A DNA stretch of 62,975 nucleotides, the filler included, from Stramenopiles sp. TOSAG23-6 (Eukaryota), in assembly GCA_900128565.1 (NCBI GenBank). It is 13 parts of 13 records of this genome, joined end to end, with 100 filler letters (N's around TTAATTAATTAA, not from the genome) between each part and the next. Parts side by side here need not be neighbours in the genome. Positions count along the whole stretch, not along the records: positions 9,745 to 14,513 come from LT637059.1; 12 more parts are not named here. One strand, written 5' to 3'. The position numbers were made by a program, and so were the translations under genes. Within the stretch, counting starts at the first letter, position 1. Each line of letters begins with the position of its first letter. Of this stretch, positions 1,046 through 38,913 are shown in pieces. The notes beneath the pieces were generated by a model. The model was not told the DNA's origin. It ran no database searches and was given only the letters and a program-made list of their open reading frames with translations.

Positions 1046-2710
1046 ATGTCACGACGAGCAAAGGGTACTGCATTGACTGTACGAAATAACAGAACACCAG
1101 CTCGTAAAGCTGTTGTTCCAGCGAGAAAAGTTGCAGCTTTTGTAGACAAATTATATAAAATATTAGAGACGGCTTCTCCAGATATCATTCGTTGGACGAA
1201 TGGNGGCTCAGCTTTTGAAGTCAACGATACCGACAGACTTTCAAAGGAAGTATTATCTGTGTATTATCGAAGCGGAAATTTCCAAAGTTTTATTCGCCAA
1301 CTACATTTTTATATGTTTCGACGTATTGAAGATACAAAGAAAAAACAAACGAAAAAGACACATTGGGAATTCACACATGAATATTTTATTCGAGGTCGTC
1401 CCCATTTAATGTCAAAAATACAGAGAAAGACAAATGTATGTTTTATTTTTTTTTTTAAACCGAAAAAAAAAAAAATCCAATTTTTTTTTCGTAGGAAATT
1501 TTGTACCTAACAAATGTTTTAGAATTTTTTTCAAATATTTTTCCAAAATGCATGGTGACCTACAAACGAAAGCTGAGGTCAATGTTCTCAAGGAAGAAGT
1601 AGCAATGCTGCGTCATACCATGACCAATTTATATTCCAAGATGAACCAAATGTCACAGGTAATGCTTGCTCTTGTAAATGAAAGACCCGATTTACACTCA
1701 ACAATTAAAAACATGTATGCTTTTTTTTTTCGGTAAAAAAAAAATCGAATTTTTTTTCGTACGAAATTTTGTACCTAACAAAAAAATTTAGATTTTTTTG
1801 AAATATTTTTTCAAAATACATAATTTTAAGTCGAAGTCCACAAAGTACTGGACAGTCGCCAAATTTGAACCAAATCTCTTCGTCAATGGTTCCTTCCATG
1901 GCTACTCCTCTACCCATGCCTATAATACCAGTCAATACGAATAACATCAACACATTTTCCAGCGATTTTTCTACTGATTCAAAAAAAAGAAAATTAGGTC
2001 AAAGTACAACTGAGAAAAATAGTGATGATTTTTTACAGTTTAATTTTCCTCATGGAACAAGTACACAGCCACATATTAATTCAAACACAATACCCAAAAA
2101 TTCTCTTTCTCCAAATGAGGATGAAACATTTGCCATTGAATATTTAGGTGATTTGGAACGTGTACCATCACCAGATTACACTTTAATTTCTACCGATCGG
2201 AATAATGCGAATAGCCCTAACCCTAGTGGTTCTAATGGGAATGGGGTCAATACTAGTACTATGGACCCATCATGGAAGAAGTTTCCTGGTGATGGTAATA
2301 TTACAAGTTCATATGGACGTAGAAGGCATATTCCTAATTCATCACTAGATTTAACAAATGAAAAGAATGATTTTATAACNAACAATAATAACAATCATGG
2401 TAGTGANAATTTAGAAATGCCGAAATTTGATAGATTAGCTTCNTATGACAAAATTCCATATAGTGAGTTNAATAGATTATCAAGTATAAATAGTATTGGT
2501 AGTATAGATTTGACTGATTTAGGTATGGCCATTGATGACGCCGATAACCCTAATAGTAATAATCGTAATAACCCTAACCCTACAAATAAAAAAAANCAAN
2601 TTGGGGCACAAAAAAATGACGATGATATTTTAAATGTTTTAACCGATTCTCTATGGGATACACAAGACTGGGATGCTAATTTAAAACCAAAGGAGAATAA
2701 TGATTTATAG
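1046..2710 (+). CDS. Heat-shock-factor-type transcription factor (HSF DNA-binding domain, coiled coil, low-complexity tail); 3 exons
   Basis: Motifs AFVDKLYKIL..IIRW...SFIRQLHFYMFR..WEFTHEYFIRGRPHLMSKIQRK. Removing introns 1436-1553 and 1715-1821 (both GT..AT) joins three ORFs in frame. Confidence 0.9.
1436..1553 (+). other. Family intron, GT..AT, 118 nt
   Basis: AAT|GTATG...GAAATTTTGTACCTAAC...CCAAAATGCAT|GGT. The AG downstream of the core (1521-1522) gives a frameshift and a stop. Confidence 0.85.
1715..1821 (+). other. Family intron, GT..AT, 107 nt
   Basis: AAC AT|GTATG...CGTACGAAATTTTGTACCTAAC...AAAATACAT|A ATT; removal restores the frame into ORF 1865-2710. Confidence 0.8.
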
Positions 2711-2832: not shown

Positions 2833-4617
2833 TTACATAATATCTCTAATATCTGACGTCGTTTCAACGGATTCCAATAATTTCTGCTGCAATTCCACCC
2901 TTTGTTGTGACTGTTCCTCCTCAGGCTCAAGCATATTCGATTCATGTGCATTTTCCCTCATTTGAAGCTCGATTCTTCTCGTTTCAAGCTGCAATTGTTG
3001 TAAACGCAGAGCGTGCTCCATTTTTTCCCTTTCAAACTGCATTTGTTGTAAACGCAGAGCGTGCTCCATTTCTTCCCTTTCAAACTGCATTTTTTCAAGC
3101 TCCATATTCCATTCAAGCTCCATTTGTTCCATTAATTCATCTCTTTTTCTTTCTTGATCTTCTGCATAACTTCTTTTTGATACTTGTTCACCCCAGCTGT
3201 AAAACATTTTCAATTTTCTCATCAAAGACCAAAATATAGTTGATTTAGATAATTGTAAATACGGATTATCCACTTTTCTGATGACGGCATTGGATGATTT
3301 TGCTTCTTGTTCTGGTTCTTGTTCTGGTTCTGGATGAATGCTTTCTTGTTCTGGTTCTTGTTCTGGTTCTTGTTCTGGTCGATATTTTTTAGAAATTTCT
3401 TTTACAGCAACAACAAATCGATTTTCTTGTGAAATGCGACAGTTATCTTCTTCTGTAAAATTAGACGGAAATATATCAAAACCGCTCAGACTGACATGAT
3501 GAGTTTCACCAGTTTGAAATACAAGCGCCTGTCCAAGTTTATCCATATCAGTAGGAAACCAAAAGTTTGCAAAGGATTCGTCTTTGGTGGGCTCAGATGG
3601 CGGAGGACATGTATGTTTGAATTCTGAGTCACTGATACTTTCTCCTTCATTGTTGACCCGAATTGCAAGTGGATGAACACGTAGTGGAAGTTTCAAAGGA
3701 AACCATACATTATACATTTGTTTCACATATAATGAAGGCTGCTCTTTTTCGTAAGATTTTTCTTCTTTATATGAAGGAATATTGTTCAGTGGGCGAATAA
3801 CACGATCTTCTGGCTCCCCGGATAATACAGTCTCATAATAATGTTCGATTGCTTCATTGAGTGTGTCAACATGAGCATACTTTACAGCAGAATTTCCTTC
3901 ATTTTCGTCATTTCCAACTGCGACAGGACACTGATCTCTTCCTTGTGTTGGCTTATTATCATCTTGTGTTACTCTGACAGCTGTCGATAATCTCCTGACC
4001 AAATCAAGAAAATGAAAGTCTTTAGAATCAGTTTCAACCTTTTCCTGAATAAAGTCATTTTCTTTTTGTAAAATTTTTTCTCGAACTGGGACAATTTCGT
4101 CAAGTCTGTACAAAAATATTTCCTCGTGAAACTGACACCGTTCGTCTTTTTCACACTCAAGTTCTTCTTTAATTGTTCCACAATCATGTGGTCCTTTGTA
4201 ATCATGAACAGGCCAACAATGCGGAAGTTGCTCTGTCAGCTCTCTCTTTATACTCCCCCAGGCGTCATATTGGAGATGTTCAAAACGTTTATAATCCTGC
4301 GGTTCCGCCTTTACATCTTGCAAGTCAAGTTCAAAACCAGAAACACCATGATGATATAAACTAAGATTAGTGAAATCTTTAAATGATTTTGGCACGAATG
4401 TAACTTTTGCAGTCGTATGACAATTTCCAGAACCAATATTGGTTACTTCACTTGCTTCATATTTGTCGTGACCATAACCACTTTTGAATGTTACATTTCT
4501 CTCAAAAAAAACACTTGCGCTTGCGCTTGCCTTCTTCTCTTCTACCACTTCCATTGCTTGATTTATCTCACACGATAAAAATAATGTAAGAATGGACCAT
4601 AGATAATTTAAATGCAT
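2833..4617 (-). CDS. Intronless secreted protein, possibly CmcJ/NvfI/AsaB-like oxidoreductase, with EQEP and coiled-coil repeats
   Basis: 594-aa ORF with a signal peptide. Motifs AHVD, NVWFPL, HPLAI, HHVSL and RISQENR occur in the order seen in that family; the family call is from memory and tentative. Confidence 0.5.
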   Translation of the reverse strand: MHLNYLWSILTLFLSCEINQAMEVVEEKKASASASVFFERNVTFKSGYGHDKYEASEVTNIGSGNCHTTAKVTFVPKSFKDFTNLSLYHHGVSGFELDLQDVKAEPQDYKRFEHLQYDAWGSIKRELTEQLPHCWPVHDYKGPHDCGTIKEELECEKDERCQFHEEIFLYRLDEIVPVREKILQKENDFIQEKVETDSKDFHFLDLVRRLSTAVRVTQDDNKPTQGRDQCPVAVGNDENEGNSAVKYAHVDTLNEAIEHYYETVLSGEPEDRVIRPLNNIPSYKEEKSYEKEQPSLYVKQMYNVWFPLKLPLRVHPLAIRVNNEGESISDSEFKHTCPPPSEPTKDESFANFWFPTDMDKLGQALVFQTGETHHVSLSGFDIFPSNFTEEDNCRISQENRFVVAVKEISKKYRPEQEPEQEPEQESIHPEPEQEPEQEAKSSNAVIRKVDNPYLQLSKSTIFWSLMRKLKMFYSWGEQVSKRSYAEDQERKRDELMEQMELEWNMELEKMQFEREEMEHALRLQQMQFEREKMEHALRLQQLQLETRRIELQMRENAHESNMLEPEEEQSQQRVELQQKLLESVETTSDIRDIM

Positions 4618-4817
4618 TCTTGTTGCTCTCTCTCTTTTTAGTGATACCGGTACCTGAATCCCAAAACAAAAGTATTTTCTTTTAATTTCAATGTTTTTTT
4701 CATACGGTACTGTACTGCGCTGAACACTGTATACTTTTTACATTTATTTTGGTTTTGGTTTTTCGTGTGTGGANNNNNNNNNNNNNNNNNNNNNNNNNNN
4801 NNNNNNNNNNNNNNNNN

Positions 4818-4829
4818 TTAATTAATTAA
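4818..4829. other. Artificial contig linker (TTAATTAATTAA between N runs); 12 copies in the window
   Basis: The same six-frame-stop linker also starts at about 9689, 14558, 19422, 24277, 29132, 33984, 38827, 43668, 48507, 53345 and 58183, spaced ~4.85 kb apart. Confidence 0.97.
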
Positions 4830-4986
4830 NNNNNNNNNNNNNNNNNNNNNNNNNNNNNNNNNNNNNNNNNNNNCAAAATTTCGTATGAAACCAAAAAAAA
4901 AAAATCGATTTTTTGTTAAAAAAAAAATTGTTAGGTACAAAATTTCGTACTAAAAAAAACAAAAATGGTAAAAAAAAAAAATGTAC

Positions 4987-5425
4987 AAGCAAGAATAAGA
5001 GTGTATGCCGTCCGTTCACATAATTTCATGAGCTGCAACAATGAACTCTCATTATCATCGACGTCTACATGACAAATTATAAGTCGATTTTTAAATTTAT
5101 GTGGGGATATTTTTGTGCAACGATCTATAATATATTTGGGATGAAGCATGTGATACTTTAAACTCAAAAATAGTGCACAAACACCATTTCCCAATAGGTA
5201 ATCAGCGTCAATTTTGATATCAGAAAAATGCCATGAAACAACACGAATGTGTTTAAGGATAGGATTTCCGCGCTGCCGAGATGATACTGTGATTGATTTC
5301 CCCGTAGACGTTAATGCTGCAGCATTTCGAGAAGTACGTCTATTATTTGCAGTAGTATACTCTGCCTTTGACCGAGGTTGGATTTGTTTCGATGAACTTT
5401 TAGGGAAATCAACATTGGTTTTCAT
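4987..5425 (-). CDS. ERCC1: DNA excision repair protein ERCC1/Rad10, first exon, partial
   Basis: ITVSSRQRGNPILKHI..ADYLLG..CALFLSLKYHMLHPKYI..TLILA. A family intron starts at 4986 (GTACA). Confidence 0.92.
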
Positions 5426-5799
5426 GATATCACAACTAAAACAATGAAAGAAACAATATACTTTTATACATTATTTCTTTTAAAGAACATAACTTCTTCA
5501 CATGAAACAAAAAAACAAGGAAGTAGTAGTGGCAAAGAAACAAAGTCGAAGTCTTCAGACTCTTCAAATCAAATCAAAACACCAAAATTTTGACCGACAC
5601 GAAATTTTGGAAATTTTGAATTTTTTTTTTTAGAAATGGATTTCCATCTTTACCTTCTTTACCACATTTACTATAAGTGAATAAATACTCCCTATGCTAT
5701 AGATAGATATTGATTTGAACAATTCTTTGAATTCAGAAAAAAAAACATAAAATTTATAATATTATATTTTATTTTATAATCATTGTGAAACGTCAAATA

Positions 5800-8700
5800 T
5801 TACGCTCCAATAGATAATACATCTTGACCAGATCCACGTACAAACACAACTGGAGGCATATCTACTGATAATATTTCAAGCCAACTTGTATATCTTCTAG
5901 TTTCCATTTGAAGATCTGCCAAGGGTAGTTGTACAAATATGATTGCCGATTTGACCGATGCTTCGTATAACAATTCTCTTAAACGCAGTACTACATTGTG
6001 AAAAAATATTTTTCCAAAATGTTTTTTGTTAGGTATGTAATTAGGTACAAAAAAAATACATGAAATGAATATTGAAGACGTACTCCTGCTAGTTTTTGTA
6101 GAAGCGTATTCCCCTCTCGCACTAATGCCTCTCCCAAATAAACCTCCTTTATTTTCACCATCATTCGTTGAGAAACCTGCATGTTTGCAAATGGTTTCAT
6201 ATTGTAATGTTGTTTTTTCACTTGGTCGAGTGGTTAACTCTGCCTCTATGGCCTCTACTTGTGCCGGTATTCGTAATTTTTTTAATAAATGGATCATTCT
6301 ACCAAGTGCTGCACTCAATTTTTCTTTGAAGGTTTTCGACTTGGATGCAANTACAAAAACTCGTATGAAATGATTTTGCCATACACGATGTTTTTGCACT
6401 AGAAAAGCAAGTAAGATTGTAAAACCACCATCATTGGCTAGCCACCAAACATCAATGTATTGTTTATCTTTTTTTGAAGATATGCCCATAATAGAGCTCT
6501 CGGAATACGATTCTGACGACATACGTCGAAGAATCGGCTTAACTATTTGGTTGTTATTGTTTGAGAATGACTTATCNCTTTTAAAATTACCAAATACACC
6601 TGAAGTAGAACTATGGGGATTAGTTTGATCTTCCTTTTGGAAATTGTCGTTCTTTTCTTTTATTAATGGCAGAGGCAATGAAAACCCTGTATCTATATCA
6701 CGAAATATACCATTTGAATCTCGTAATACAATCATTCCATAATTGTGCCAAATAGAATCTTGTATTATNGCTTCATATTCTAAAACTTCAGTTGCTGGTG
6801 CTGTGTCCCAGTCCTTTTTCCATCCTATCAGTACTGTATTTGGTCTAATTCTACCAAGGCCAGTTGTTTGAAGTAAATTACAAAATCCTTCATGTAATGT
6901 TGGTGCACTAATCACTTCGCAGAATGCACCACAATGGCTATGTTTATTTCGCCATACATGAGGGTTATTATATAAAAAATCATGCATTTTAGCCTTGATC
7001 TCTTGAGCATTCAGAAGATCTTCTCTTCTTGAAAGAAATCGATTACCACTTAATTGTTTAGAGTTGCAAACAACATTACCACAACACATTACTCCACCAC
7101 CACTGGAGTTTATTATAATGGCTAATTTCATCATTGCCATTCTTGAATTTGAAATATGATGAGTATTATCATTAAAAGCTTCTAAACAACCTGTAAGTAC
7201 TAAAAGTTCGGGTCTAAATGTTTTAGCATGTGGTGAAATTTCATCAAGTTCTTGAATATGTTTCAAAGTTACTACATATTTTCTGGCCTCCTGTGCAGGA
7301 CCCCAATGAACATCAATGTCAAGAAATCCTACGTATACATATATAAACGCACCTAAAACAAATGATAACAGTGTATACATCCAATTCATAACAAACATAC
7401 ATACCACNCACAGGAGTGCACCAACCAATGCTAACCATTTATTATAGTATTTAAATGTAGGTCTCCAAGACGAATGATTAGCATTTGCTACAGAGAAACA
7501 AGCATAGTTCAATGTCGCATATGCAATCATGAAAAAGTTTGAAATGAGAGGGGCAATATAGTCCAACTCGCCAATCAAACAAAATGCAGTTCCAATCACA
7601 AAAGTGAGGACGTATCCTCTCACAGGTTCATTNCCATGTNTTTNGNAAAATANTTCNAAAAAAAATCTNAAAAATGTGTTAGGTACAAAATTTCGTACGA
7701 AAAAAAAAACAAATTNAAATTTTCAAAAAAATAAAACATACATCACCGCTACCTTTTGAAAAGAAACGTAAACAAGCCCATGGAAATATATTATCTGCTG
7801 CAAGAGATTGAAGAATTCGTGGAGCACCAACAATGGATGCTAATGCTGACGAGAGAGTCGCTGCCCATACACCAACGTATAAAAGTGGAGAAAATACTGA
7901 CACTGTTTCCAGAATCAGTTTATTATATAACAAACCTCCAGTTGGTATTTTTCCAGTAAAATTGTTTGTATATTTTCCAGCTCCATTATCTGGACATATT
8001 TGCATTCCATCTGGATCAGAACACCTNACACANGTTAGACCTACAATCCAAATAAATATTACATATGTTGCAAATGTGAGAGCAATACCACGCGATGTTC
8101 CTTTTGGAATAGCTTCTGAAGGATCGTCCAGGTCACCACTCATATTACAGCCAGCTGTTATNCCTGTGACAGCAGGGAAAAATACACTAAATACACTGAA
8201 AAATGAATACTTGAAACCTGTGGAAGGATCCACCTGAAATGCAGGTAAATACATAGACGTCCAGTTTGTATCAGACACTGATATTTTTGTATTGCCAAAT
8301 GTTGCTTTCAAATCAAATCCCCAGAAACCTAACCCTGCATTAGTTGATCTACTTGGAACACCTGGTAAGAAAATACCTATAAATATACTTACCATTGAAA
8401 CAATTAGAATAAATAATAATATACGCATACTTTTTGCATATAATTTTGCTCCCCCTCCGGCAGACACAGCTAATAATATACTCATAGTACCTACACAATA
8501 NANTCTCATATCCCACGCCCAAGATCCTAATAAAGGTTCAATATCATTTTTTTTTAATATATCGAGAAGAGATTCGACAAAACCTATTGTATACATTGAA
8601 CATGCTACGGCCTGTGCAAAATAAAATAATAAACCAATCACTCCGCCGAATGCAGGACCGAGATTTCTTGAAATCAAAAAATAAGGTCCACCTGTACCGA

Positions 8701-9311
8701 CTTCACCATTTGTACATGTATTTTGGAAAAATATTTCAAAAAAAAAAATTAAAATTTGTTAGGTACAACATTTCGTACGAAAAAAAAATTCGATTTTTTT
8801 GTAAAAAAAAAAAAAACATACATAGAGCAAATATTGAAAGAGCAGTGATACCCGTGACGATATTCGATAATATTACTATTAATGTGCCTAACAAAATACC
8901 TGCCTGACCAGTAACCCAACTAGTACGTAGAAACATAATTACTCCCCATATATTCAATAGAACAGGGACCATGACTCCATCAAACCAGTTCAATTTTGTA
9001 CCAGANTCTTGGGAGACTTGAGCTTTTTTCTTTACATATTTTTTATGAGACATTGCTTTTGAGTTTGGAGCATACACGTCTTTTATATTTTTTAAATCCA
9101 ATGATACATGAGAAGGATCTTTTACTTGTCTAAATTGTAATGTGTTTGGAGGGCTCTCATATGCATCGTCAAACTTTCTTACTTTGTTGAATTTATTCGA
9201 TGCAACAACGACCTTGGCCACTGTTCGCATAGACGGTACTTTTCTTTTACTTTCTATTGCTACTAGCGGAAGCATTGTATCTTTATCATCTTTAATAGCA
9301 TATTCTGACAT
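5800..9311 (-). CDS. SLC12 cation-chloride cotransporter (NKCC/KCC-like); 4 exons
   Basis: Motifs [32 protein letters not shown] and FVRGSG. Removing introns 8716-8821 (GT..AT), 7636-7741 (GT..AT) and 5991-6083 (GT..AG) rebuilds [20 protein letters not shown] and KTSRILRLRELL. Confidence 0.93.
8716..8821 (-). other. Family intron, GT..AT, 106 nt
   Basis: CTA T|GTATG...AAAATACAT|GT ACA AAT GGT. There is no AG between CCTAAC and the conserved TNG motif. Confidence 0.88.
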
Positions 9312-9753
9312 TTTTTTTATTCTAAAGTAGAAACGATATTTATAATGCCATACTTTTTTTCATTCAATGAAAATCTGTCGATCTAGCTAATAGTAGTAAG
9401 TAGCTATTTGTACTCGTAAGTAGTCTAAAATAATAGTGGGAAAAAAACGGACAGTGAGCAGTTGAAAAAATTTACGTTAAAAACCGTATCCTAATTTAAA
9501 TTTCAGATCCAGAATCGTATCTGCTTTGTTTGTTGTTCTGCCGTTGAAATATCTAATATCTAAGTTTTTGACAATAACAAACCTAAAATCGCCATAATGA
9601 AGAAACATGTACTACTTATTCTACTATTATCAACGTGTCTTTCTNNNNNNNNNNNNNNNNNNNNNNNNNNNNNNNNNNNNNNNNNNNNTTAATTAATTAA
9701 NNNNNNNNNNNNNNNNNNNNNNNNNNNNNNNNNNNNNNNNNNNNTTTTTTTAA

Positions 9754-9786
<33 letters not shown>

Positions 9787-9891
9787 GGTTAGGTAAAAAA
9801 TTTCGTACAAAAACCAAAAAAAAAAAAAAAAAAAAAAAAAAATTGGACCTAACATTTTTTTTATAATTTTATTTTTATCTTTACTACACAG

Positions 9892-10240
9892 GGACATATA
9901 ACTTTTTTATCAAAGTTTCAAAAGATATTTACAACATTTGATTCAAATGGTGATGGAATAGTCGATGAGGAAGAATTAAGACATATTATTGTTACTTTAG
10001 ATAATTCAAAAACTCTAGAAAATGTCAACAAAATTGTAAATTTGATTGATGTATGTTTTTTATTTTTTTTTTACAAAAAAATCTAAATTTTTTTTTCGTA
10101 CGAAATTTTGTACCTAACAAATTTTGGAATTTTTTTTTAAATATTTTTCCAAAAAACATCCTTATAATAATCAACGCATTACATACAGTCAATGTATTAA
10201 TGCCCTATCCGATGAATTGATGCGCTTAGTGTGTATTTAA
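9892..10240 (+). CDS. EF-hand protein, last two exons, partial
   Basis: EF-hand FDSNGDGIVDEEEL. Removing intron 10051-10159 (GT..AT) gives IDPYNNQRITYSQC; stop at 10238-10240. Confidence 0.75.
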
Positions 10241-11091: not shown

Positions 11092-13951
11092 ATGCAGTCC
11101 AATGATGGCACCGAATGTCTCACTGTTGGAGCCGAAGCGTTTCGATTAATCGATAACCTGTCATTTCCGTGTATAATTAAAGATGTCAAAGTGGATACTT
11201 TCTCCGTACAATATACTGATGACGGTTTCATCGAAGACAGTGTCCCTCAAAGTGAGCTTACATCTCGTAGTGGTGTTATTGATTTAGTTAATTGTCAGCA
11301 GGATGTTGAAATAATTCGTCCGTTTAATGCACATAGAAAAGCAGATTTAGTTGTAGAAAAGACACCCGTATCTTTTGTTGATCAGAAAAGTGACTCAGTT
11401 GTAAAAGAAAAGTGTCAACTGGACAAATATATAGTTCACAAATGTAATACAATAGACAATAAGCCTGTATCAAACAAAGAACTATTAAAAACGGAAACAA
11501 AGAAGGAAACAACAACAATAAAAACGGACACAAACAATGTTTCAATTATAAAAAACTCCATCCACCCTAAATCTAATGTCTCCGACTCTGAAGCATCTTT
11601 AATTTTGAAAGCAGCTGGTGAGTCAAGAACTTGGAGCCAACTCAATGTCTTTGAGAAATGGGAAGCTATGAAAAAAGGGTTTAATCGTATTCTTGAAAAA
11701 CATGTACATTTTCATCATTTATTTCACCCTACCCTGATATATTGTGGAGTATAGAACGTTTTTTTTTTTTCACTTTTTTTTCGTAGGTAATTTTGTACCT
11801 AACAATTTTTTTTTGTTTTTGAAATATTTTTTTTTTTTTTTTTTGTAGATTCTTCAATTTTCTCCATATTTGTTCTTCAAATGTATTTTCTAGAATTCTA
11901 CTGAAATTATTGTACCTAAAGAAATATAAATCTAAGAACTCACATATTTTCACTAACCCTAACCCTAACCCTAATTTTCACAACACATGTTGAACAAATT
12001 TCCATCGCACTTCAACAGGACAATTCTCTGTTTAATGACAAATTCCAAAACACATTTGATACCATTGATGAGTTTGATGATGTATGTTTTATATTTTTTT
12101 TTTTACCGAAAAAAAAAAATCGATTTTTTTTTTTGGTTTTTCGTACGAAATTTTGTACCTAATAAAACATTTTTTTTTTTTTTGAAATATTTTTCAAGAA
12201 TAAATTTTGTCATTGATGAACCAGAAGAACTGAATTTAAAAATAAGACAATTATCAAGAATGTTGAAACAATCAAAGAATACTATTATTTTTACAGGTGC
12301 TGGCTTGAGCACATCCTCAGGAATTCCGGCATATCGAGGGAAAAATAGTATCAAAAATATAGAAAAAAGAAAAAAAACATCTTTGTTGACTAAACATCCT
12401 AACCCTAACCCTAACCCTACTACACTTTCCACATCAAAAAAATCAAAAAAATCAAAAAAATCAAAAACATCAAAAACATCAAAAACATCAAAAACATCAA
12501 AAACATCAAAAACATCAAAAAACGCTGAATCAGAAGAAAAGCATACGACACACTTGCCTTCTACATCTGATATGATTTCAATTGTGCCAAGCAAAGCACA
12601 CGAAATCATCACAAAACTTGTTGACTCAAAACAGTATGTTTTCATACTTTTAAACCCTAACCCTAGTAACCCTACCCTAAAAAAAAAAGAAAATTTTAAA
12701 TCTTCATTCAAAACCAAACATATTTTTTTTTTTTTTTTAATTTTTTTTACAATATTGTGTTCATTGCCATCATTTCACAAAATATTGATGCATTTCTTTC
12801 TTATCATTATATGAATTACATGGTATTTTTTTTTTTAATACGAAATGTTGTACCTAACAATTTTTTTTAGATTTTTTTTGAAATATTTTTTTACAATATT
12901 TTGTTCATTGCGTCATTTCACAAAATATTGATGGATTACACCTTAAAAGTGGTTTATCTAAAGAATCATTATATGAATTACATGGTAATATTTTTATGGA
13001 AGTGTGTAATTCTGTAGATGGTTGTACGTTTTCATAATTGAATTTCAAATTTATTTTTTTTTCGTACGAAATTTCGTACCTAACAAATTTTACAAAAAAA
13101 AAATATTTTTTTTCACATTGTATGTGGCATAGAGACAATTCAAGAAAATCCAATGACGTCATTTATTGAATTACAGGAAAGATTCAAACAAAAGAAAAAT
13201 GATACCATTGATGTTCATGTATGTTTTATTTTTTTTTATTGGGAATTTTGTACCTAAAATATTTTGGAATTTTTTTTGAAATATTTTTCCAAAATATTTT
13301 TTTTTTCATACGAAATTTTGTACCTAACAAATTTTAAAAAAAATTTCGAAATATTTTTCCAAAATACATTTAACAGGACGAAAATGTCAATATTGTAATG
13401 CCCCTACTCGAGATAATATTATCGGTTATGGTGAACCACTTAATGTACATTTTCATTTGAATTACATATATATATATATGTAGATATTTTTCTACCAAAA
13501 TTTGTACTTTAAAAAAAAATATTTTTTTTTCTACCAAAATTTGTACTTACAAAAAAAATATTTTCTTTACAAAAACGTTTCACGATATAGGCAGATGTCA
13601 TTAGTAAAGCTTCAAAAATCGCAAAGAATGCAGATTTGATCATTGCAGTAGGATCTAGTCTTGGAGTTATTCCAGCAGCGACTCTTTGTATGTTTGTCTT
13701 ATCCTAATCCTTCAATGATACAATTATTTCTATTTCATAAAAAAAAATTTTTTTTTGTTTTTCATAGTAAATTTTGTACCTAAAAAAAAAAAAAAAAAAA
13801 AAATATATTTTGTTATACTACATGTACAATGGGAAAATCATTAGTAATTATTAATATAGGTAAAACATCGCTAGATACTACGGCGCAACTTTTGATTAAA
13901 GGAAATATTAATGATGTTTTTGAACAACTATCAACTAGAATGTATATATAA
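11092..13951 (+). CDS. SIRT6/7-like sirtuin with an N-terminal Tudor-like domain; 8 exons
   Basis: Motifs [47 protein letters not shown] and LVIINIGKT. Introns at 11704-11988, 12082-12205, 12634-12901, 13024-13123, 13219-13369, 13445-13590 and 13688-13823. The join to ORF 11092 is less certain than the sirtuin core. Confidence 0.85.
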
Positions 13952-14090: not shown

Positions 14091-14399
14091 ATTGTCGAAA
14101 TCTCATTCTTCATTATGCTTACATACATTAACTCAACTTGTTTTTTATCAATATCTTTTGCGTCATTATGTGATAGCACATATTTTTGTAGGAAAGTATT
14201 TAAAAAAAAACATCAATTTCGTTAGGTACAACATTTCGTATGAAAAAAATATATATCAAATTATTTTTTCCTGGATTGAATTTTTTTTTGTTAGGTACAA
14301 AATTTTTGTATGAAAAAATGATGAAAATGTACTCTATGCACCCAATCTGACATTGGTGTTTTTTCACGAACATTAGGATTATATGTATAAGAATTAAGC
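14091..14399 (-). CDS. Fragment of an unidentified multi-exon gene
   Basis: Two short open exons (..PMSDWVHR|VLSHNDAK..) join on removing intron 14180-14332 and are flanked by further family introns. Confidence 0.4.
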
Positions 14400-14702
14400 A
14401 TGTATTTGTGTGAAGGAAAAAAAAATGAAAAAAAAAATGAATTTTTTTTTTCATTTTTGTATGAAATTTTCATAGTAAAAAAAAAAAAAAAAAATTTGAA
14501 AATTAAAAAAAATNNNNNNNNNNNNNNNNNNNNNNNNNNNNNNNNNNNNNNNNNNNNTTAATTAATTAANNNNNNNNNNNNNNNNNNNNNNNNNNNNNNN
14601 NNNNNNNNNNNNNTATTTTGGAAAAATATTTCAAAAAAAAATCGTTAGGTACAAAATTTCGTACGAAAAATAAATTAGAAATTGAAAAAAAATAAAACAT
14701 AC

Positions 14703-15548
14703 ATCACATCGATTACTTTCCAGTGAAGGTAAACCAGCAACCGAGAAGACACCATATGCATCATCAGCAGCATCAGTTAAGTTGCTTCTACTACCAAATG
14801 TAGACCTTTTTTTACTTGCATTATCTTCAGATAACTCAAAATCATACAATGTAGAGAGTGAGGAATCGCCTTGATTATATCGTTTTGAAATAGTAGTCTC
14901 ATGCCCTGTATTCACACCCCACCCACGAGAAAGATGCAAACGAGAATTATTATCAGAAAGTGACTGAAGACCTCGTTCACCTTTAACTAAAAAACCAAGT
15001 CCATAGGCATCATTTTTTGCAACCACTGTAATTTCTTCTGACAAATTCGTTGGAGCAAAATGATGCGTCTCTGCAAGGATACTTTCGCCTGCAAAACGCA
15101 TGTCACTACGTTGCCGTGCAGGACCCACACCTTGCCCTTCCTTCCAGCCCATTTGCTGTAATAATAAACGACCTACCGTTGGTGGAGTACAAGTAATTAA
15201 TTCAGAGATCTGATTTCCAGGTACGATAGACTGAGATATAGTATTATCTTTATTTGATTTGGATGTAGAGCTTTGGTCTTTAGAATTTGGATTTGAGTAA
15301 AGACCTCTTAGTAATAACTGCCTACCTAACATGGGGTCATCCTCATCATCCATGAAATCCTCAGGTCGTTGACGTCTTGTATCTTTTTTATCAGCCGACG
15401 AAGAAAATGTCCCGGGTTGCCATCCCTCTTTGGTACCACATGTATTATAATACCCTGCGGAGAAACCTCCTGTAAAAGCTCCATGAAATCGGCGGCGTCC
15501 TTCTTTATCCGTCACAACTCCTTCATCACGCTTTACTGGCTTCATCAT
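14703..15548 (-). CDS. GPATCH1: G-patch domain protein GPATCH1/TGH-like (DUF1604), partial
   Basis: RRFHGAFTGGFSAGYYNTCGTKEGW, RPEDFMDDED and G-patch GRLLLQQMGWKEGQGVG. An intron starts at 14702; a further upstream exon is possible. Confidence 0.88.
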
Positions 15549-15981: not shown

Positions 15982-16916
15982 ATGAACGGCGACTTAAAAG
16001 TACAACATTGTAAAGGTCCTCGGCGTCGAACCAGCACAATGGTCGTTGCTGAAGGTGGTGAGGTTAAAAAGAGTCAAAAAGAGTCAACGAAAGAATCTAC
16101 CTTCTGGTCTCAAATCACGGCACGAAAAAGTTTGGAAGTTATACTTACTGAGGAAAGTGAAGCAGATTTAGATCGATCTCTAACCCTTACTGATTTACTA
16201 GCTATTGGTATTGGTGGTACAGTAGGTTCTGGAATTTTTGTAACGACAGGCTTGATTGCGCATGCTTATGCCGGGCCTGGCGTTGTTTTGAGTTGGTTAA
16301 TCGGTGGTGTCTGTTGTTGTATCAGTGGTTTATCGTATGCAGAAATGAGTTCTCGTCTGCCTAGTGCGGGTTCGGCATATGCATATACTTACTATACTAT
16401 GGGTGAACTTCCGGCATTTATTGTTGGTGGACTATTGTATGTTTTCGTTATTAATTTCCAACTTATTTTTTTACAAAGAAAATTTTGTACCTAACGAATT
16501 TTTTTTAACTTGACATATTTTTTTACATTACTTGACGTTAGAATACGGAGTAAGTGCAGCAGCTGTTGCTCGAAGTTGGGGTGATAAAGTTGTATTTGTT
16601 ATTGAGGAACAGTTTAAGCTAAATGGGGTTGGTTTCCTAAATTATGAATATGGAGCTTTCATGGCAGGTTTAATTCAGTTTTTATCTGTTTTACTTCTTC
16701 TTCTTGGATTTTCTATAAGTACACGAGTGATAAAGGTGGCAACAGTGTTTAAAGTAATACTTGTAATTTTTATCATGATTGTTGGGTTTATTCATTTTGA
16801 TATTTCAAATGTAAGTCCAATTGTACCAAAGTCACATCAGTTCATACCCAGTACTAAAGATAAAGAAAATGGTTTACATTCCTTCCCATCATTTGGTTTC
16901 ACTGGTATAATGTAGG

Positions 16917-16947
<31 letters not shown>

Positions 16948-18003
16948 TTAAACTTTTATACCAAAGATTGTTTTCTTACAAATTGTACAAAAAAAATAAT
17001 TATTTTTGCACAATACATGGCAGGTGCAACTCAAGCTTTCTTCGGTTTTGTCGGATTTGATGAAGTGTGTTGTATGGCAGCACAAACACAAGACACCCGA
17101 AGAGTTATGCCAAAGGCTGTTCTTGGTACTATCGCTGGTGTCACTGTCCTCTCTGCTGGTGCAAGCTTAGCTCTTGTAGGTATGTCAGATTATAAAAACA
17201 TTTCAGCTGTTTCAGGTTTTACTTCCGCATTCCAGCAGCATGACTTAGACTGGGTAGCATACATTGTCTCTTTTGGAGAACTTTTGACATTGCCTTTTGT
17301 TGTGGTCATTGCTTTTTTAGCACAACCACAATTACTTTTTGCAATGTCGAAAGATGGGCTCTTACCTGAAATCTTTAGTGCGACAGATAAGAACAAGAAT
17401 TTGTTTTGGGGTACGGCCATTAGTGGAACTTTAATGACGGTTATTGCGGTATTTGTTCCCTTTACTCATCTTGAAGATGTTATTTGCACTGGCGTATTAA
17501 TAAGTTTCAACATGACTAATGTAGCTCTTATTCTAGTACGTCTTCGGGAACAAAAACAATCCCTCGACACACAGAAAATCAAAGTAAAATCGACCAATAC
17601 ATTTTCACCTGAAAATATTGGACCAGCTTTGCTCTGGTTTTATATAATGTTTACTATTATATCTGCATTTCTTATTACATACTCCGATTTCAATGAACAC
17701 TCAAATACTGTTCCGATATCTACAGTACTATTCTCAGTTGCAGTGGCCATTATGTGTCTTGCACTTTTATGCTATTTCAGTAAACATGAAAAAGAATCTT
17801 TCTCTGACCCAGATGATATTTTTAAAGTACCACTTGTTCCGTTCATTCCATGTGTTGGAATCGCTTTGAATACGTACCTCATTAGTACAACAAAGTGGGA
17901 AAGTTTACTTCTTACAGTTGGATTTTTGGTGCTGTGTATCCTCGGATATTTCGCATATGGTTACCAAAATGCAGAATCACGAAACAATTGGAATCGCAAA
18001 TAA
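15982..18003 (+). CDS. Cationic amino-acid transporter (APC/CAT family); 3 exons
   Basis: Motifs GIGGTVGSGIFV, AGSAYAY, FFGFVGFD and FKVPLVPFIP. Introns 16437-16533 (GT..TT) and 16912-17018 (GT..AT). Confidence 0.92.
16437..16533 (+). other. Family intron, GT..TT, 97 nt
   Basis: CTA TT|GTATG...CATTACTT|G ACG TTA GAA TAC gives GGLLTLEYG; TT is present at both junctions. Confidence 0.8.
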
Positions 18004-18225: not shown

Positions 18226-19299
18226 TTACTGTGAGAAAATAAAAGAAACGAGAGCAAAAATAGCACTTAAAATTGAGAGCTTTTGGCTCATATCAACACC
18301 AGAACGAAGCGTTGCATCAAGCGATACTACATGTGGAGTTTTAGGGCATACTGGATCACTTGCGACTCCAACCTTTGTACCAAAGTTACGCATGCCGTTA
18401 CTTGTCTTTGATAATACGACAGTTCCTTCATATGTTCCTCCCATGCCTTGTGTACAATGTCCACCTATGCTTTTATTAAACGGATAGTAAAAAAGAAAGT
18501 CAATGCACATTTCATCCTCAGAGCCTAGCCCAAATTTAATATCTTTATCGGTCTTATTATTGAACCAGCACTTTGTATTCAATTTATCACCTTTTTCGAT
18601 GTCGTACGTTTGTACTAAGGTTGGATCTTGAAACGCAAAAGAAAAGTATTCTACGGCATTTGGGCGTGTTTTTGTAGTGCCGTCAGACTTTGTAATTTCA
18701 GTATACATTTGATCTCCCGTTCCATGCATATGTAATATTGAGCCAAAAACAGTAATTTTATGTGGCCAATTCTTTGTTGTGTTTGCAGCACACGTCCATT
18801 CAAATGAGGAACGCCCTGGTTTAATCGCTGTGCCCGATTTACCAAGAATGCCATCGCCAAGCTGTAAAACACCTGCCTCGTGTTGCATCGTAGCTTTTGA
18901 CAACCACATTCGAAGACCATTATTATCTTTCAAACCCGAAGCACCAGTGATGTTATCATAATGAACTTGCAACCTGAAACTCTTATAATTTTTAAAAGGT
19001 ATTCCAACTCCTTTTGGCAATTCATCAAAAAATGTCATTCCGCCAACCCATATAACGGTCGTATACTTATTTTCATCACAATTGTCGTTTTCAAATCCGT
19101 ATAGTACAAAATGATGGACATTTGCCGCAGTATTTGGTGTTTTCTTTTTCCCTTCAAACGCTACTATATTATTATAGCCATTCGATTTCATTGTGGTCCA
19201 AGCCGTTTTTGTCTTATAACAATACTCCCAATAAGTAGTTCGAGTCGTGGGAATTGGCTGACCTCCAGTTTGTGGTGTTTGGTAGGTCTTAACGTCATC
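18226..19299 (-). CDS. Copper type II ascorbate-dependent (DBH/MOXD1-like) monooxygenase, last exon
   Basis: Motifs HHFVLY, LQVHYDN, HMH and EDEMC, plus a hydrophobic C-terminus. Preceded by a family intron 3' end (..AACTACAT at 19300). Confidence 0.88.
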   Translation of the reverse strand, partial: DDVKTYQTPQTGGQPIPTTRTTYWEYCYKTKTAWTTMKSNGYNNIVAFEGKKKTPNTAANVHHFVLYGFENDNCDENKYTTVIWVGGMTFFDELPKGVGIPFKNYKSFRLQVHYDNITGASGLKDNNGLRMWLSKATMQHEAGVLQLGDGILGKSGTAIKPGRSSFEWTCAANTTKNWPHKITVFGSILHMHGTGDQMYTEITKSDGTTKTRPNAVEYFSFAFQDPTLVQTYDIEKGDKLNTKCWFNNKTDKDIKFGLGSEDEMCIDFLFYYPFNKSIGGHCTQGMGGTYEGTVVLSKTSNGMRNFGTKVGVASDPVCPKTPHVVSLDATLRSGVDMSQKLSILSAIFALVSFIFSQ

Positions 19300-19493
19300 A
19301 TGTAGTTTGGAAAAACATTTCAAAAAAAAATCGTTAGGTACAAAATTTCGTACGAAAAATAAATTCGAAATTGAAAANNNNNNNNNNNNNNNNNNNNNNN
19401 NNNNNNNNNNNNNNNNNNNNNTTAATTAATTAANNNNNNNNNNNNNNNNNNNNNNNNNNNNNNNNNNNNNNNNNNNNGATGAAGAAAACGTAC

Positions 19494-20781: not shown

Positions 20782-23700
20782 TTAAAATTTCATTATTTTT
20801 TCCTTCTTCATTCTACCATCTATCCCAAGAACCATACGTCGTTCTTGACTATCTGCTGATCCTGGTCTATTTCGAGAAGTTCTAAGTACAGGAAGTTCTG
20901 TTTCTTTTTCAAATTCTCCGGAGAGTAGTTTTTTTCTAAAGTCATCAACGATAGGAACATTAGCAGCCTCCAGTTCTCTTTGTAATCGCGCCAGTCGCAT
21001 TGCTTTCTCTCTTTGCATGGTCTTTTTCCAATATGCTTTTGTTTTCAAAGCTTTGCGGCGTGCATTATCACGCTGTTTTTTAAAGTTTGCTAGCGCTTTT
21101 TGCTTTGGTGTAAGTTCGTCAGTTGAAACTACGTCGGCACCAGAAACTAATCTCGGCTGCATTTTTATTAAGTCTATTTTAGCTTTTTGTAAAAGTTTTG
21201 ATACACTTTTACTTTTTGCTAATTCATATGCATATCTATTTCGATTATTTTTTGTATTTAACATACGGAATAATCCTAAAATACGGAATTTTTTAAGCTT
21301 CCATGTATTTTGGAAAAATATTTCAAAATTGTTTTTGTTAGGTACAAAATTTCGTACGAAAAACAAATTGAAACTTGAAAAAAAATAAAACATACATTCG
21401 CCCTTACTGCACTCATATATTGTAGGAGCCGTCAAAGCCGTACACGTAGACAAGTGATTACGACGCGCGGCCCAGTGAAGTGCCGTATCACCATTCCCAT
21501 CTTGAATATCCATATCAGCTCCGTGATATATTAAATAATTTACAATGTCAGTACTTCCTGCTCTAGCAGCAACATGAAGTGGTGTCATTGCAGTTAAAAT
21601 ATCAGTTTCTCTATTTGTATCTGCATTTTTCTTCTCAACTAAGTATTTAACAAGATTCAAGTGACCAGCCCAGCAAGCATTATGTAACAATAAATCACCT
21701 GTATCAGACTCAGGATCATTCACTGAAAATATCCGATGTTCTTGATGCTTCTGACGTTTCGTTTCATCTTCTATAAGCTCCCCCAGTCTTTTTGTGGAGA
21801 CTCCAACACGTGCACCAGTCCAAGGATTATGTACAGATGCATCTACTTGATTTTGATGTTCAATAGCTGAAATTTCTGCCATTTTTTTTTCTAATTCTTT
21901 ACGGGCAGCATTCTCAACATTGCGTTTTTCAATACCTTTTCTCCACCATACATGACATAACTGAATGAATTTTCTGTGATTGCTTTCAATACGATGTTGA
22001 GATAATTTAGCTTTTGCAAAATGCCTCTGATTGAGCTCTTCAGAACGCATTTTAATACAATTTCGTTCCTCCTCTTCTCGCTCTTTTGCATTTCTAATAA
22101 GCCTTTCAGAATGATTTGCAGCATTAATGGCTCCTTGGGTCAATTGTAAACATTCGTTAACTCTCGGATGAAAAGAAAAAAACGCCCGCTTTGCTGATTT
22201 GATACCTTTAGAAAAGTCCAAAGGTGTTTCATCATCTCTATCATAATCGTCAGAATTTACATTAGCACAATATAACATACTAGCCTCAGCTTTTTCCACT
22301 GACTTTTTAAAGCGATCTATTTGGCCAACTTGTTGTAAAGGTTTCGAAACCTTGTACCGAAATATATCTCGCGACATCAAGGCAGTCAAATCTGCCCATC
22401 CTTGATATAACCTACGTACATCTGCTTCTAATGCAATGATAGGTAACTGACTGGCATCTAACATTGCTTCTTCCACTAAATTGCGATAATTTTCAGTAAC
22501 ATCTGACACACGTTTTTCGAATAAGTTCAATTTGTTTTTCATTTCTTCTTTTCCACCACAATAAGCTTCGTCGGATTCAACTTCTGCTTTCAAAGATACA
22601 ACTTTAGCAAGTTTTTTCTGTGCTTTTTTCATTAGTTTCTTTGTAGCGCGGATCGCCTTCCAGACTTTGACAAACTTTTCTAATCCTGTGATACCTTCAA
22701 ACTTGTCTAACGTAAATTGAACACGCTCAACACTATGAGATAACCCTTCAGTCTCTTGATTCAAAGTTTTAGAAAGTTTCTTAAGCTCTGCTTTCATTTG
22801 ATCCTTTGCTTTTTTTCTTGAAGCTGCTTCTTCTCTCGCTTGTTTTTGACGCCATGCACACTGAGTCTTCAATGCAGCATCTTTTTGACGCTGAATGACG
22901 TCACCAACATCCTCTAGAAAATACTCGAATGCAACTTTATCTTTATGTTCAGGATGTTTGTATCTACGAGCAACTAGCGTAACGTCTTTTTTATCCAATC
23001 GAAATGAATATTTCTTTTTGACAAGAAAATAAAAACTTTGTTGGTTCAAATAATCATTATTTTCATCATCAAGTTGACGAAATGCACGAGCGAATGCATC
23101 ATAAATTCCTCTATTTTTTACTTGATCAACAATTGACCACATTATTCGGTCCAACTTTTCTTCCTCTGCCATTGAAAATGCTTGGCCAGAAGGATTTGAA
23201 AAACCAAGTGTGTCTCTCTTCTTCTTTGCTTTGGCAGCTTTTTCTGCTTCTTCTTTTTGTATTGCTTGTTGTTTCTTGATGTCAGTTTTATGCTGGTTTT
23301 CATATATTTTTCGAATATCTTGAACAAATAAATGGTAGTCAACGGCATTATGCTTTTGAGAATGGTGGTAACGACGGACAACTAACTTCATATTAGGTTC
23401 TATTATTCGTAATCGAAACTTGACTTGAAATATTGACATGAAAGATTTTGCATCTAAATAATGCCTATAGTTGATATCTGCATCTCCAAATGCCTGAAGA
23501 AATTCTTCTGTTGTACCATGGTGTTTCAATTGGGCAACTATATGCCACAGTGTTGCGTCTAAATCTTCTTCTTCTTCAAGCGTAAATTTATCACCAGAAC
23601 TATTTGAAAAACCAAAATGTTGTGACTTTTTCCGCCGCGCAGCAGCTGCTTCGTCTGCTTGTTGTTTTTGTATTCTTAGTTGTTTCAATTTCGCTGATTT

Positions 23701-25219: not shown

Positions 25220-25320
25220 GTATGTTTTATTTTTTTTCAATTTTGAATTTAGTTTTGTTTTCGTACGAAATTTTGTACCTAACGAATTTTACAAAAAACA
25301 AATATTTTTTCACAATACTG
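25220..25320 (+). mobile_element. Full-length intron-family element outside any clear CDS
   Basis: GTATG...TTTCGTACGAAATTTTGTACCTAAC...CACAATACTG, with ATACTGTG at both ends (25213-25220 and 25315-25322). Mobility is inferred, not shown. Confidence 0.55.
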
Positions 25321-25597
25321 TGCTAACATTTTTGCATTGCTTTGGAAGATCAAAGATTTCATTTTTGCATTGCTTTGGAGGATTAAAGATGTATACAAGC
25401 ACTGTATATAATCTTGATTAATGTCATCAACAATAAATATATTTATGATGGTACAATATTATATAGTAAATTTTGTAAAAAGACAATTTTATAATAAAAT
25501 CTAAGACTTCAAAATTTCGTGTTTTGAAATGTATGTCTCATCAGGCACTGGGTACAGTAACTATATAGTTAGTGATACTTATTTTAAAAATAAAAAA

Positions 25598-29086: not shown

Positions 29087-29300
29087 ANNNNNNNNNNNNN
29101 NNNNNNNNNNNNNNNNNNNNNNNNNNNNNNNTTAATTAATTAANNNNNNNNNNNNNNNNNNNNNNNNNNNNNNNNNNNNNNNNNNNNCAAAATTTCGTAT
29201 GAAACCAAAAAAAAAAAATCGATTTTTTGTTAAAAAAAAAATTGTTAGGTACAAAATTTCGTACTAAAAAAAACAAAAATGGTAAAAAAAAAAAATGTAC

Positions 29301-29739
29301 AAGCAAGAATAAGAGTGTATGCCGTCCGTTCACATAATTTCATGAGCTGCAACAATGAACTCTCATTATCATCGACGTCTACATGACAAATTATAAGTCG
29401 ATTTTTAAATTTATGTGGGGATATTTTTGTGCAACGATCTATAATATATTTGGGATGAAGCATGTGATACTTTAAACTCAAAAATAGTGCACAAACACCA
29501 TTTCCCAATAGGTAATCAGCGTCAATTTTGATATCAGAAAAATGCCATGAAACAACACGAATGTGTTTAAGGATAGGATTTCCGCGCTGCCGAGATGATA
29601 CTGTGATTGATTTCCCCGTAGACGTTAATGCTGCAGCATTTCGAGAAGTACGTCTATTATTTGCAGTAGTATACTCTGCCTTTGACCGAGGTTGGATTTG
29701 TTTCGATGAACTTTTAGGGAAATCAACATTGGTTTTCAT
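29301..29739 (-). CDS. ERCC1: ERCC1 first exon (duplicate copy)
   Basis: Translation identical to 4987-5425. Confidence 0.9.
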
Positions 29740-30094
29740 GATATCACAACTAAAACAATGAAAGAAACAATATACTTTTATACATTATTTCTTTTAAAGA
29801 ACATAACTTCTTCACATGAAACAAAAAAACAGGAAGTAGTAGTGGCAAAGAAACAAAGTCGAAGTCTTCAAATCAAATCAAAACACCAAAATTTTAATTT
29901 TGCCAAAATTTTGACCGACACGAATTTTTTTTTTTAGAAATGGATTTCCATATTTACCTTCTTTACTACTAAGTGAATAAATACTCCCTAAGTTGAAGTA
30001 GATATTGATTTGAACAATTCTCTGAATTCAGAAAAAAAAAACATAAAATTTATAATATTATATTTTATTTTTAATCATTGTGAAACGTCAAGCA

Positions 30095-38782: not shown

Positions 38783-38913
38783 NNNNNNNNNNNNNNNNNN
38801 NNNNNNNNNNNNNNNNNNNNNNNNNNTTAATTAATTAANNNNNNNNNNNNNNNNNNNNNNNNNNNNNNNNNNNNNNNNNNNNAAAATTTTTGAAATATTT
38901 TTCCAAAATACAT

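Follow-up and report, generated by a model that had tools for sequence, protein, structure and literature searches.

A probable introner family with a non-canonical 3' splice site in the genome of Stramenopiles sp. TOSAG23-6

Bursts of intron gain are at present best explained by introners, reportedly the subject of Huff et al. 2016. Here we analyze a stretch of 62,975 nucleotides (nt; hereafter the window) from Stramenopiles sp. TOSAG23-6 (GenBank assembly GCA_900128565.1) and describe what is probably such a family, a repeated element exemplified by an intron of a sirtuin gene at positions 13219-13369 (contig LT637059.1), with 3' ends that mostly read AT. As far as the available text of one survey goes (Gozashti et al. 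2022, PMC9860276), the introners of Micromonas, Aureococcus, dinoflagellates and aquatic protists resemble this element in having many similar copies at unrelated, mostly genic sites, splice signals of their own, short end repeats, inverted termini in many families, and lineage-specific positions. Known families, however, are GY-AG, whereas 21 of the 31 introns tabulated here end in AT and five in AG, and all introns seen belong essentially to one family. Fungal introner-like elements (cited in the same text, PMC9860276) are likewise short introns that multiply in genes in the sense orientation, and reverse splicing has been proposed for them; they are GT-AG and have no inverted termini or duplications, in contrast to the AT ends, short inverted repeat and antisense copies seen here.

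Other described systems break the GT-AG rule more thoroughly. The introns of the tunicate Fritillaria borealis (Henriet et al. 2019, in the account given by PMC11282704) mostly violate it, lie at species-specific positions, and have inverted termini, target duplications and a spliceosome that has apparently adapted. Their 5' ends are also non-canonical (AG-AC, AG-AT and many other pairs) and they form many families (PMC11282704), unlike the present introns, which make up one family with a textbook GTAYGT start and a CTAAC-type motif, and differ only in a last base of T for G. Amoebophrya (Farhat et al. 2021, PMC7789003) is a marine protist with repeated non-canonical introns and no clear transposase, and its inverted repeats and 3-5-nt direct repeats overlapping the exon/intron borders are a further likeness. 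It shows no dominant splice dinucleotides, hairpin repeats of 8-20 nt and a reduced-looking U1 (PMC7789003), as against uniform ends, an inverted repeat of 6(+4) nt and no predicted stable fold here. The nonconventional introns of euglenids and hemistasiid diplonemids, in the text available from PMC12621601, share non-GT-AG borders and pairable intron ends, but they lack a conserved 5' GT and need strong end pairing; here GT opens all 31 tabulated introns, the pairing is weak and the host is a stramenopile. In the literature consulted we found no description of GT-AT introns or of the present family, although survey supplementary tables might list one. According to PMC12130899, introner surveys start from annotated introns and drop unfamiliar splice sites without RNA support, so that a family of the present kind could be missed. 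In the accessible parts of single-cell genome papers on uncultured stramenopiles (PMC5778133, PMC3998028), introns are mentioned in the methods only.

The window has a G+C content of 32% and contains eukaryotic genes with short AT-rich interruptions. Its parts are contigs of about 4.75 kilobases (kb) in descending order of size, separated by spacers of the form N44-TTAATTAATTAA-N44 (4774-4873, 9645-9744, 14514-14613 and onward, about every 4.85 kb), and gene neighbourhoods across the spacers are artificial. Many contig ends lie within copies of the element. Contigs 4874-9644 and 29188-33939 share 99.0% identity over 4.77 kb, both with an SLC12 transporter gene and the same four intron copies, and are a duplicate assembly or two alleles. 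The best named homologs of a permease gene are from oomycetes and a diatom, and those of a dehydrogenase gene include a labyrinthulid.

An nhmmer model built from copies of the element matched 60 places in the 63 kb, 56 of them outside the duplicate contig. The initial annotation had proposed an introner-like architecture for 13219-13369 and had missed that about 56 non-duplicate places match one element of about 105 nt, in sense to the genes. The 106-nt consensus reads CATGTATGTTTT..(T/A-rich)..TTTTTCGTACGAAATTTTGTACCTAACAAATTTT..TTTTTGAAATATTTTTCCAAAATACATGT, with a GTAYGT 5' end, a near-invariant internal 12-mer, TTTGTACCTAAC, and an (A)ATACAT 3' end. This 12-mer occurs 61 times at up to two mismatches (7.95 expected), 32 times exactly, and is conserved far beyond the remainder of the element; pairwise identity over the model columns of 28 copies averages 70% (range 45-90%). 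Copies were found in sirtuin, permease, SLC12, ankyrin, macro/UCH, GBP, dehydrogenase and unnamed genes, and all definable introns of the sirtuin (six), permease (two) and aldehyde dehydrogenase (three) genes are family members. One element seems to supply essentially all introns seen in the window, about one per kb.

Beyond the window, words of its DNA occur in seawater metagenomes and poly(A) metatranscriptomes, which together with the named homologs makes the host a marine stramenopile. Exact searches with a 22-mer from the element gave no match in the collections of metagenome, prokaryote-genome and viral contigs. Depth over element bins in a DNA metagenome run, summed over contigs, was about 10^4 times that of neighbouring bins, a rough figure and a rough sign of thousands of copies. 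An Rfam scan of the window gave no match. The interior of the element holds two perfect palindromes, TTTCGTACGAAA and GAAATATTTC (e.g., 13062-13073 and 13348-13357), which are candidate protein-binding sites.

That the copies are introns follows most directly from RNA. Contigs from two poly(A) metatranscriptome runs of one study were placed on the contig at 9745-14513 only, with rows from contigs of other repeat copies, and uncovered bins, excluded. Four joints were obtained within the sirtuin gene, 12079/12204, 12633/12902 (in both runs), 13022/13123 and 13686/13823, and the sole register common to all four, equivalent placements allowed, starts with GT. Writing exons in lower case and splice junctions as ^, the supported registers are at^GT..AT^, ca^GT..TT^ (the single one possible), tt^GT..AT^ and tt^GT..AT^, none of them with an AG end. 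One contig is spliced at intron 2 yet runs 52 nt into intron 3 and must therefore derive from RNA, not from an intron-less allele. Another (X7 record 22) begins to fit at 13591, at the predicted AG end of the diverged intron 5. Intron 2 lacks the end repeat and contains AACCCT repeats. Copies of the element are removed from RNA as introns.

The intron at 13219-13369 is the fourth of this gene, and its junctions read gttcat^GTATGTTTT...CCAAAATACAT^ttaaca. Excising these 151 nt is the sole GT-started solution that preserves the sirtuin frame, joining DVH to LTGRKCQYC, and with all six predicted introns removed the gene forms a single open frame of 349 amino acids (aa). Twelve homologs, found with a 40-residue core query (a search with sirtuin exon 2 gave none), align without gaps for several residues on either side of the junction (VH^LTGRKC vs FK^PTGRRC). 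Because a 15-residue insertion lies on its upstream side, the junction is not placed to the exact base by homology by itself; the ends are supported by frame, homology and likeness to the four RNA-confirmed neighbours together. GT-AG solutions were also considered, and none keeps the frame.

Internally, 13219-13369 is a composite. A full short unit, 13219-13299, ends in AAAATATTT, its terminus decayed to ATATTT, and is followed by a 5'-truncated unit, 13300-13369, with the 12-mer at 13317-13328; the model gives two matches within the intron, 13229-13296 and 13298-13369. It is probably a single introner copy whose 3' two-thirds became tandemly repeated. The observation made at this locus is confirmed, and the locus is both a sirtuin intron and a copy of the repeated element.

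Junctions were tabulated for 31 introns, four by RNA, two by protein alignment plus one confirmed later, and the remaining ones by family-model ends and reading frame. Left out were 52833-52931 (three possible in-frame ends), four copies with ambiguous ends (56523-56638, 56667-56732, 45522-45603 and 11704-11848), those cut by contig ends or Ns (35-68, 4922-4986, 7635-7743, 14614-14704, 19299-19378, 38885-38913, 43554-43628, 48397-48462 and 53211-53276), and the four copies of the duplicate contig. All 31 begin with GT, and one further intron (34337-34439) does not. At the 3' end we counted AT in 21, AG in five, TT in three, and GT and CG in one each. The ends defined by the model, from the G of GTAYGT to the T of ...ACAT, keep the flanking ORFs in frame in 19 of the 23 unique copies of full length, where chance would give one in three (p=1.7e-6); two of the four exceptions regain the frame one base on. 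Alignments of 10 homologs each support four junctions, at 16437-16533, 16912-17018, 34195-34293 and 34337-34439.

The A of a TACCTAAC-like motif lies a median of 42 nt (range 33-55) from the intron end, and an AG between this motif and the real end is bypassed in eight of the 22 non-AG introns, RNA-confirmed introns 1 and 2 of the sirtuin gene among them. The bypassed AGs indicate that the intron end is set by a constant position within the element's terminal block and not by the first AG. The 3' splice site is defined by position in the element and a Y-A-U-like end rather than by AG. The 12-mer, about 42 nt from the 3' end, would be the branch site. For the intron without GT, 34337-34439 on the minus strand, the homologs require EAGL^PDGV, which leaves TA..CA or, one base to the left, AT..TC; the latter register would set a first A against a last C in place of the family's usual G and T, in this single case. 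A GT..AT alternative for this intron was rejected since it adds two residues relative to the 10 homologs.

The initial annotation had counted upstream exons ending in AT in 23 of 38 cases and in T in 30 of 38; our table bears this out, with 19 and 24 of 31. AT makes up 9.3% of dinucleotides in long open reading frames (ORFs), and the 18 AT exon ends among 28 in an earlier 28-intron table are far in excess of this (p=1e-12). The downstream exon begins with G in 20 of 31 introns, so the exon junction reads (C)AT^G. The exon-end dinucleotide equals the intron-end dinucleotide in 20 of 31 introns, against 13.5 expected (permutation p=5e-4; Fisher test of AT by AT, 17/2/4/8, p=0.002), and non-AT ends match in three cases against 0.68 expected (p=0.018), with no locus-specific exon/intron match at positions -3 and -4. 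The suggested relation of end matching to divergence was positive as well: the interiors of introns with matching ends lie closer to the consensus (medians of 0.79 and 0.71; one-sided p=0.010), and 10 of 12 copies at 0.80 or more to the consensus have an end match. Across introns the junction repeats span 0 to 8 nt.

Whether this repeat is a 2-nt target-site duplication, as had been proposed, is a separate matter, and the proposal is partly supported: the matching of ends in 20 of 31 introns speaks for it, while the mismatch of the other 11 and non-AT repeats of 7-8 nt do not fit. The two non-AT repeats cited earlier are real. The TT/TT ends at 16437-16533 stand in a gapless alignment of 10 homologs, but TT is a recurrent variant of the 3' end (3 of 31), so that this case is weak evidence for duplication; the TACAG repeat at 52556-52662 belongs to a GT-AG copy on the minus strand, tacag^GTGTGT...CATACAG^gtg. 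According to the part of PMC9860276 that treats this point, a repeat that is identical at nearly all sites is indistinguishable from an insertion-site preference. An invariant AT...AT is equally fitted by a preference for insertion at AT^G, and an insertion between A and T, with no duplication, looks alike. The 2-nt duplication is live but unproven.

The terminal complementarity of ATGTAT with ATACAT that had been pointed out is present. Across 16 copies, ATGTAT(G)TTT from the 5' junction can pair with AAATACAT from the 3' terminus in 84% of cells, the repeat consisting of ATGTAT/ATACAT plus TTT/AAA after a one-base bulge. In these 16 copies we saw no compensatory change in the terminal pairing, shuffled controls did equally well, and RNAalifold returned no consensus fold, which together point to an inherited terminal inverted repeat and not to a selected RNA helix.

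Orientation and genomic placement bear on how the element moves. In a crude test by flanking ORFs, 39 of the 60 matches were in sense with the gene, 14 ambiguous and seven "opposite", two of the latter falsely so, being RNA-confirmed sense introns with short exons. The antisense copy at 46764-46820 is nearly full length, sits between two sense introns and is translated through as SLLGTEFGMKKN; element fragments lie in non-coding DNA at 9785-9835, 52030-52075 and 62382-62583, and no intact full-length intergenic copy was seen in the window. Such antisense and non-coding pieces favour entry of the element into DNA in both orientations, with selection acting afterwards, over reverse splicing alone. 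A second possible in-frame antisense piece, 62904-62962, lies within an open plus-strand frame at the end of the window.

Intron positions were compared with related permease loci from metagenomes, 80 of which gave no match to the family model. In the 22 best related loci the site of the second permease intron (J2) is uninterrupted in 22 of 22 and that of the first (J1) in 18 of 21, and J2 is likewise empty in the closest relative, at 53% identity, whose sequence is genomic DNA that also contains a convergent neighbouring ORF. At two distant loci, L012 (~4290-4510) and L015 (~4275-4540), a canonical GT-AG intron of the same phase as J1 lies two codons upstream of it, and at one related locus an intron lies seven codons downstream of J1. 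These empty sites, from one gene and with GT-AG introns near J1, would be in keeping with lineage-specific positions. Intron phases in our table are even, at 12/10/9. The introner-like architecture is supported.

Table 1. Introns and other copies of the element in the window. Paired dinucleotides give exon end/intron end; ^ marks splice junctions, with exons in lower case.
Feature	Position	Strand	Junctions or ends	Support and remarks
Sirtuin intron 1	12082-12205	+	at^GTATGT..AAAT^tt	placed joint 12079/12204 in RNA contig X9 record 26
Sirtuin intron 2	12634-12901	+	ca^GTATGT..ATTT^tg	RNA contigs X7 record 20, X9 record 27
Sirtuin intron 3	13024-13123	+	tt^GTACGT..GTAT^gt	RNA contig X9 record 27
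Sirtuin intron 4	13219-13369	+	cat^GTATGT...ATACAT^tta	sequence, two nhmmer matches, frame, 349-aa ORF, homolog alignment
Sirtuin intron 5	13445-13590	+	at^GTACAT..ATAG^gc	frame; RNA contig X7 record 22; diverged, canonical AG end
Sirtuin intron 6	13688-13823	+	tt^GTATGT..ACAT^gt	RNA contig X7 record 22
Amino-acid permease intron J1	16437-16533	+	tt^GTATGT..ACTT^ga; TT/TT	10 homologs gapless, GGL^LTLEYG
Amino-acid permease intron J2	16912-17018	+	at^GTAGGT..ACAT^gg	10 homologs gapless, GFTGI^MAGATQ; absent 22/22 related loci
Betaine-aldehyde dehydrogenase intron	34195-34293	-	gg^GTACGT..ATTT^gt	10 homologs
Dehydrogenase intron without GT	34337-34439	-	tta^TACGTT..TTCA^ccc or tt^ATACGT..ATTC^acc	10 homologs
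Family copy	1436-1553	+	AT/AT	family model and frame
Family copy	1715-1821	+	AT/AT	family model and frame
Diverged copy, SLC12 gene	5991-6083	-	GA/AG	duplicate at 30286-30378
Family copy	8716-8821	-	AT/AT	duplicate at 33011-33116
Family copy	10051-10159	+	AT/AT	family model and frame
Copy with two central motifs	14180-14332	-	GA/AT	
Family copy, ankyrin-repeat gene	21303-21395	-	AT/AT	945 and 172 open codons flanking
Family copy	25220-25321	+	GT/GT	8-nt junction repeat ATACTGTG
Family copy, macro/UCH gene	26059-26162	-	AT/AT	
Family copy	39038-39154	+	AT/AG	
Family copy	39266-39366	+	AT/AT	
Family copy	39922-40020	+	AT/AT	
Diverged copy	42111-42197	-	AA/AG	
Family copy	44194-44315	-	AT/AT	
Family copy, central deletion	45763-45856	-	AT/AT	
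Family copy	46363-46478	-	AT/AT	
Antisense copy, in frame inside minus-strand exon 46479-47004	46764-46820	+		nhmmer E=2.9e-8
Family copy	47005-47115	-	AT/AT	
Family copy (GT-AG)	52556-52662	-	AG/AG	8-nt junction repeat TACAGGTG
Family copy, GBP-like gene	55812-55910	+	AT/AT	
Family copy	59115-59209	-	GT/AT	
Family copy	59320-59430	-	AG/CG	
Family copy	59516-59624	-	AT/AT	

Some features of the sirtuin gene stand apart from its introns. In the region of 13023-13122 its zinc-binding motif reads C-NSVDG-C where 12 homologs have CxxC, and the RNA-confirmed splice leaves three extra residues at this motif. A 9-nt tandem repeat in exon 2 (ACATCAAAA and variants, 12413-12538) encodes an (SKK/SKT)n insertion upstream of the core, length variants of which are present in the RNA contigs. 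Telomere-like AACCCT repeats lie inside contigs, at 62603-62700 and, around the sirtuin gene, at 11950-11975, 12407-12425 and 12653-12693; one run is just 5' of the coding region, one within intron 2, and one is translated as NPNPNP in exon 2. One pair of such repeats is inverted (GTAACCCTAACCCTAAC...GTAGGGTTAGGGTTAC) around ~65 nt and resembles a small inverted-repeat element.

We consider it probable that these copies belong to an introner family whose 3' splice site is non-canonical, and that this non-autonomous element supplies nearly all introns seen and spreads at the DNA level. Several observations weigh against this reading. Among the contig rows listed, no RNA contig spans 13218/13370, and RNA support comes from one gene in two runs of one study. 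Exon and intron ends differ in 11 of the 31 introns, five of these mismatches having RNA or protein confirmation, including three that are RNA-confirmed (CA/TT, TT/AT and TT/AT) and one supported by protein (GG/TT), and two young non-AT matches carry 7-8-nt junction repeats (ATACTGTG and TACAGGTG) that a fixed 2-base-pair (bp) duplication leaves unexplained. The inverted repeat is short, 6 bp plus 3-4 after the bulge, and the 6 bp need the AT of the exon. The branch-site role of the 12-mer is read from its position and CTAAC core. Pfam scans of 30 window ORFs gave no transposase or autonomous element, so the element with the same termini that had been proposed as a search target did not appear among them; this says little because only about 57 kb of the genome is covered. 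No empty-site polymorphism within the species was seen, and the GT-AG introns two codons from J1 may mean an old intron that slid or was replaced, or chance.

The strongest competitor, which we nevertheless consider unlikely, is that the same family spreads via RNA, by reverse splicing into transcripts at AT^G, copying into DNA and recombination, with no duplication involved and the exon-side AT being a site preference of the spliceosome. Sense orientation and the AT^G context are equally expected from such a route: clear-cut copies are sense to genes (39 of 60 in the crude test), what is repeated coincides with what is spliced, both junctions read AT^G as ordinary introns read AG^G, no transposase was found, and 11 of 31 ends are unmatched. 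What it accommodates poorly are the antisense copy within a coding exon and the fragments in either orientation in non-coding DNA, the existence of a terminal inverted repeat, and the excess of non-AT end matches, together with the decay of matching with divergence. Far less probable is that no mobile element is involved and that old ordinary introns look alike through long fixed signals of the spliceosome at the 5' end, branch region and 3' end. The 12-mer is indeed far better conserved than the rest and the layout is common to all introns seen, but CAATTTCGAATTT, CGTACGAAAT and GAAATATTTTTCC are shared in order over ~100 nt without a plausible signal role, and antisense and fragment copies, positions absent in relatives, the even phases and tandem partial duplications inside introns are all at odds with fixed signals.

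Two further readings concern the nature of the excised segments. U12-type introns have AT-AC or GT-AG ends, a 5' ATATCC motif and a branch motif about 10-15 nt from the 3' end. If their boundaries are shifted leftward by two bases, the present introns become AT-AC introns of this type, ^ATGTATG...ATAC^AT, an idea to which we give hardly any credence. It had been remarked that the AT repeat makes GT..AT formally equivalent to AT..AC, which holds for the AT/AT copies (17 of 31 introns permit the register) but not in general, since RNA-confirmed 12634-12901 has one register only, GT..TT, and 13024-13123 and 13688-13823 have registers without AT..AC; moreover, the 5' end is GTAYGT and not ATATCC, and 33-55 nt separate the putative branch motif from the intron end. 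With AT-AC excluded by the RNA-confirmed registers of three of four introns, AT..AC was rejected as a general reading. Least credible of all is that the segments are not introns but DNA bounded by TA and eliminated in the manner of ciliates: TA...TA removal is in frame for 13219-13369 and 16437-16533, yet in one RNA contig an intron has been spliced out and the following one has not, and the host is a stramenopile with standard stops in long ORFs. TA..TA removal was also rejected at 16437-16533, where it adds two residues lacking in 10 homologs.

Under the introner reading, the element would move through DNA in the manner of a miniature inverted-repeat element, inserting either with a true 2-bp duplication or at a preferred site, at or between its A and T. 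New copies seem to start out with equal exon-side and intron-end dinucleotides, usually AT, a match that as a statistical trend decays with age. A sense copy would carry its own splicing signals (GTAYGT, the 12-mer, a T-rich tract and the terminal block GAAATATTTTTCCAAAATACAT) and would survive by being spliced out, the RNA being cut exactly at GT...AT and less often at ...TT or ...AG, while antisense copies would survive where they are in frame or non-coding.

We also put forward, tentatively and as somewhat likelier to be wrong than right, that the normal 3' site of the major spliceosome has shifted genome-wide in this uncultured marine stramenopile, from AG to a position-defined ...YAU, by co-evolution with an invading introner family that replaced the ancestral introns, with the first and last intron bases forming a G-U pair. 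If true, such pairing would account for the A-starting intron at 34337-34439, which is readable as C-ending, and for the splicing of GT...AG copies.

What stands out in this system is that nearly all introns seem to be one family and that an orthodox 5' site and branch-like motif are combined with an AT end for which upstream AGs are bypassed, features by which it separates the spread of an element from the choice of 3' site by the spliceosome. Since surveys rely on annotated GT-AG introns, they cannot see a family whose 3' end differs, and such a family also disrupts gene prediction for its host. Gene models for this organism need splicing that is aware of GT-AT and GT-TT introns, or else most proteins are truncated at each element. 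Single-cell assemblies and ocean metatranscriptomes already allow both the spread and the 3'-site choice to be tested. Were the shift of the 3' site to prove true, GT-AT would be a third regular class of intron and a natural test case for site choice in the second step of splicing.

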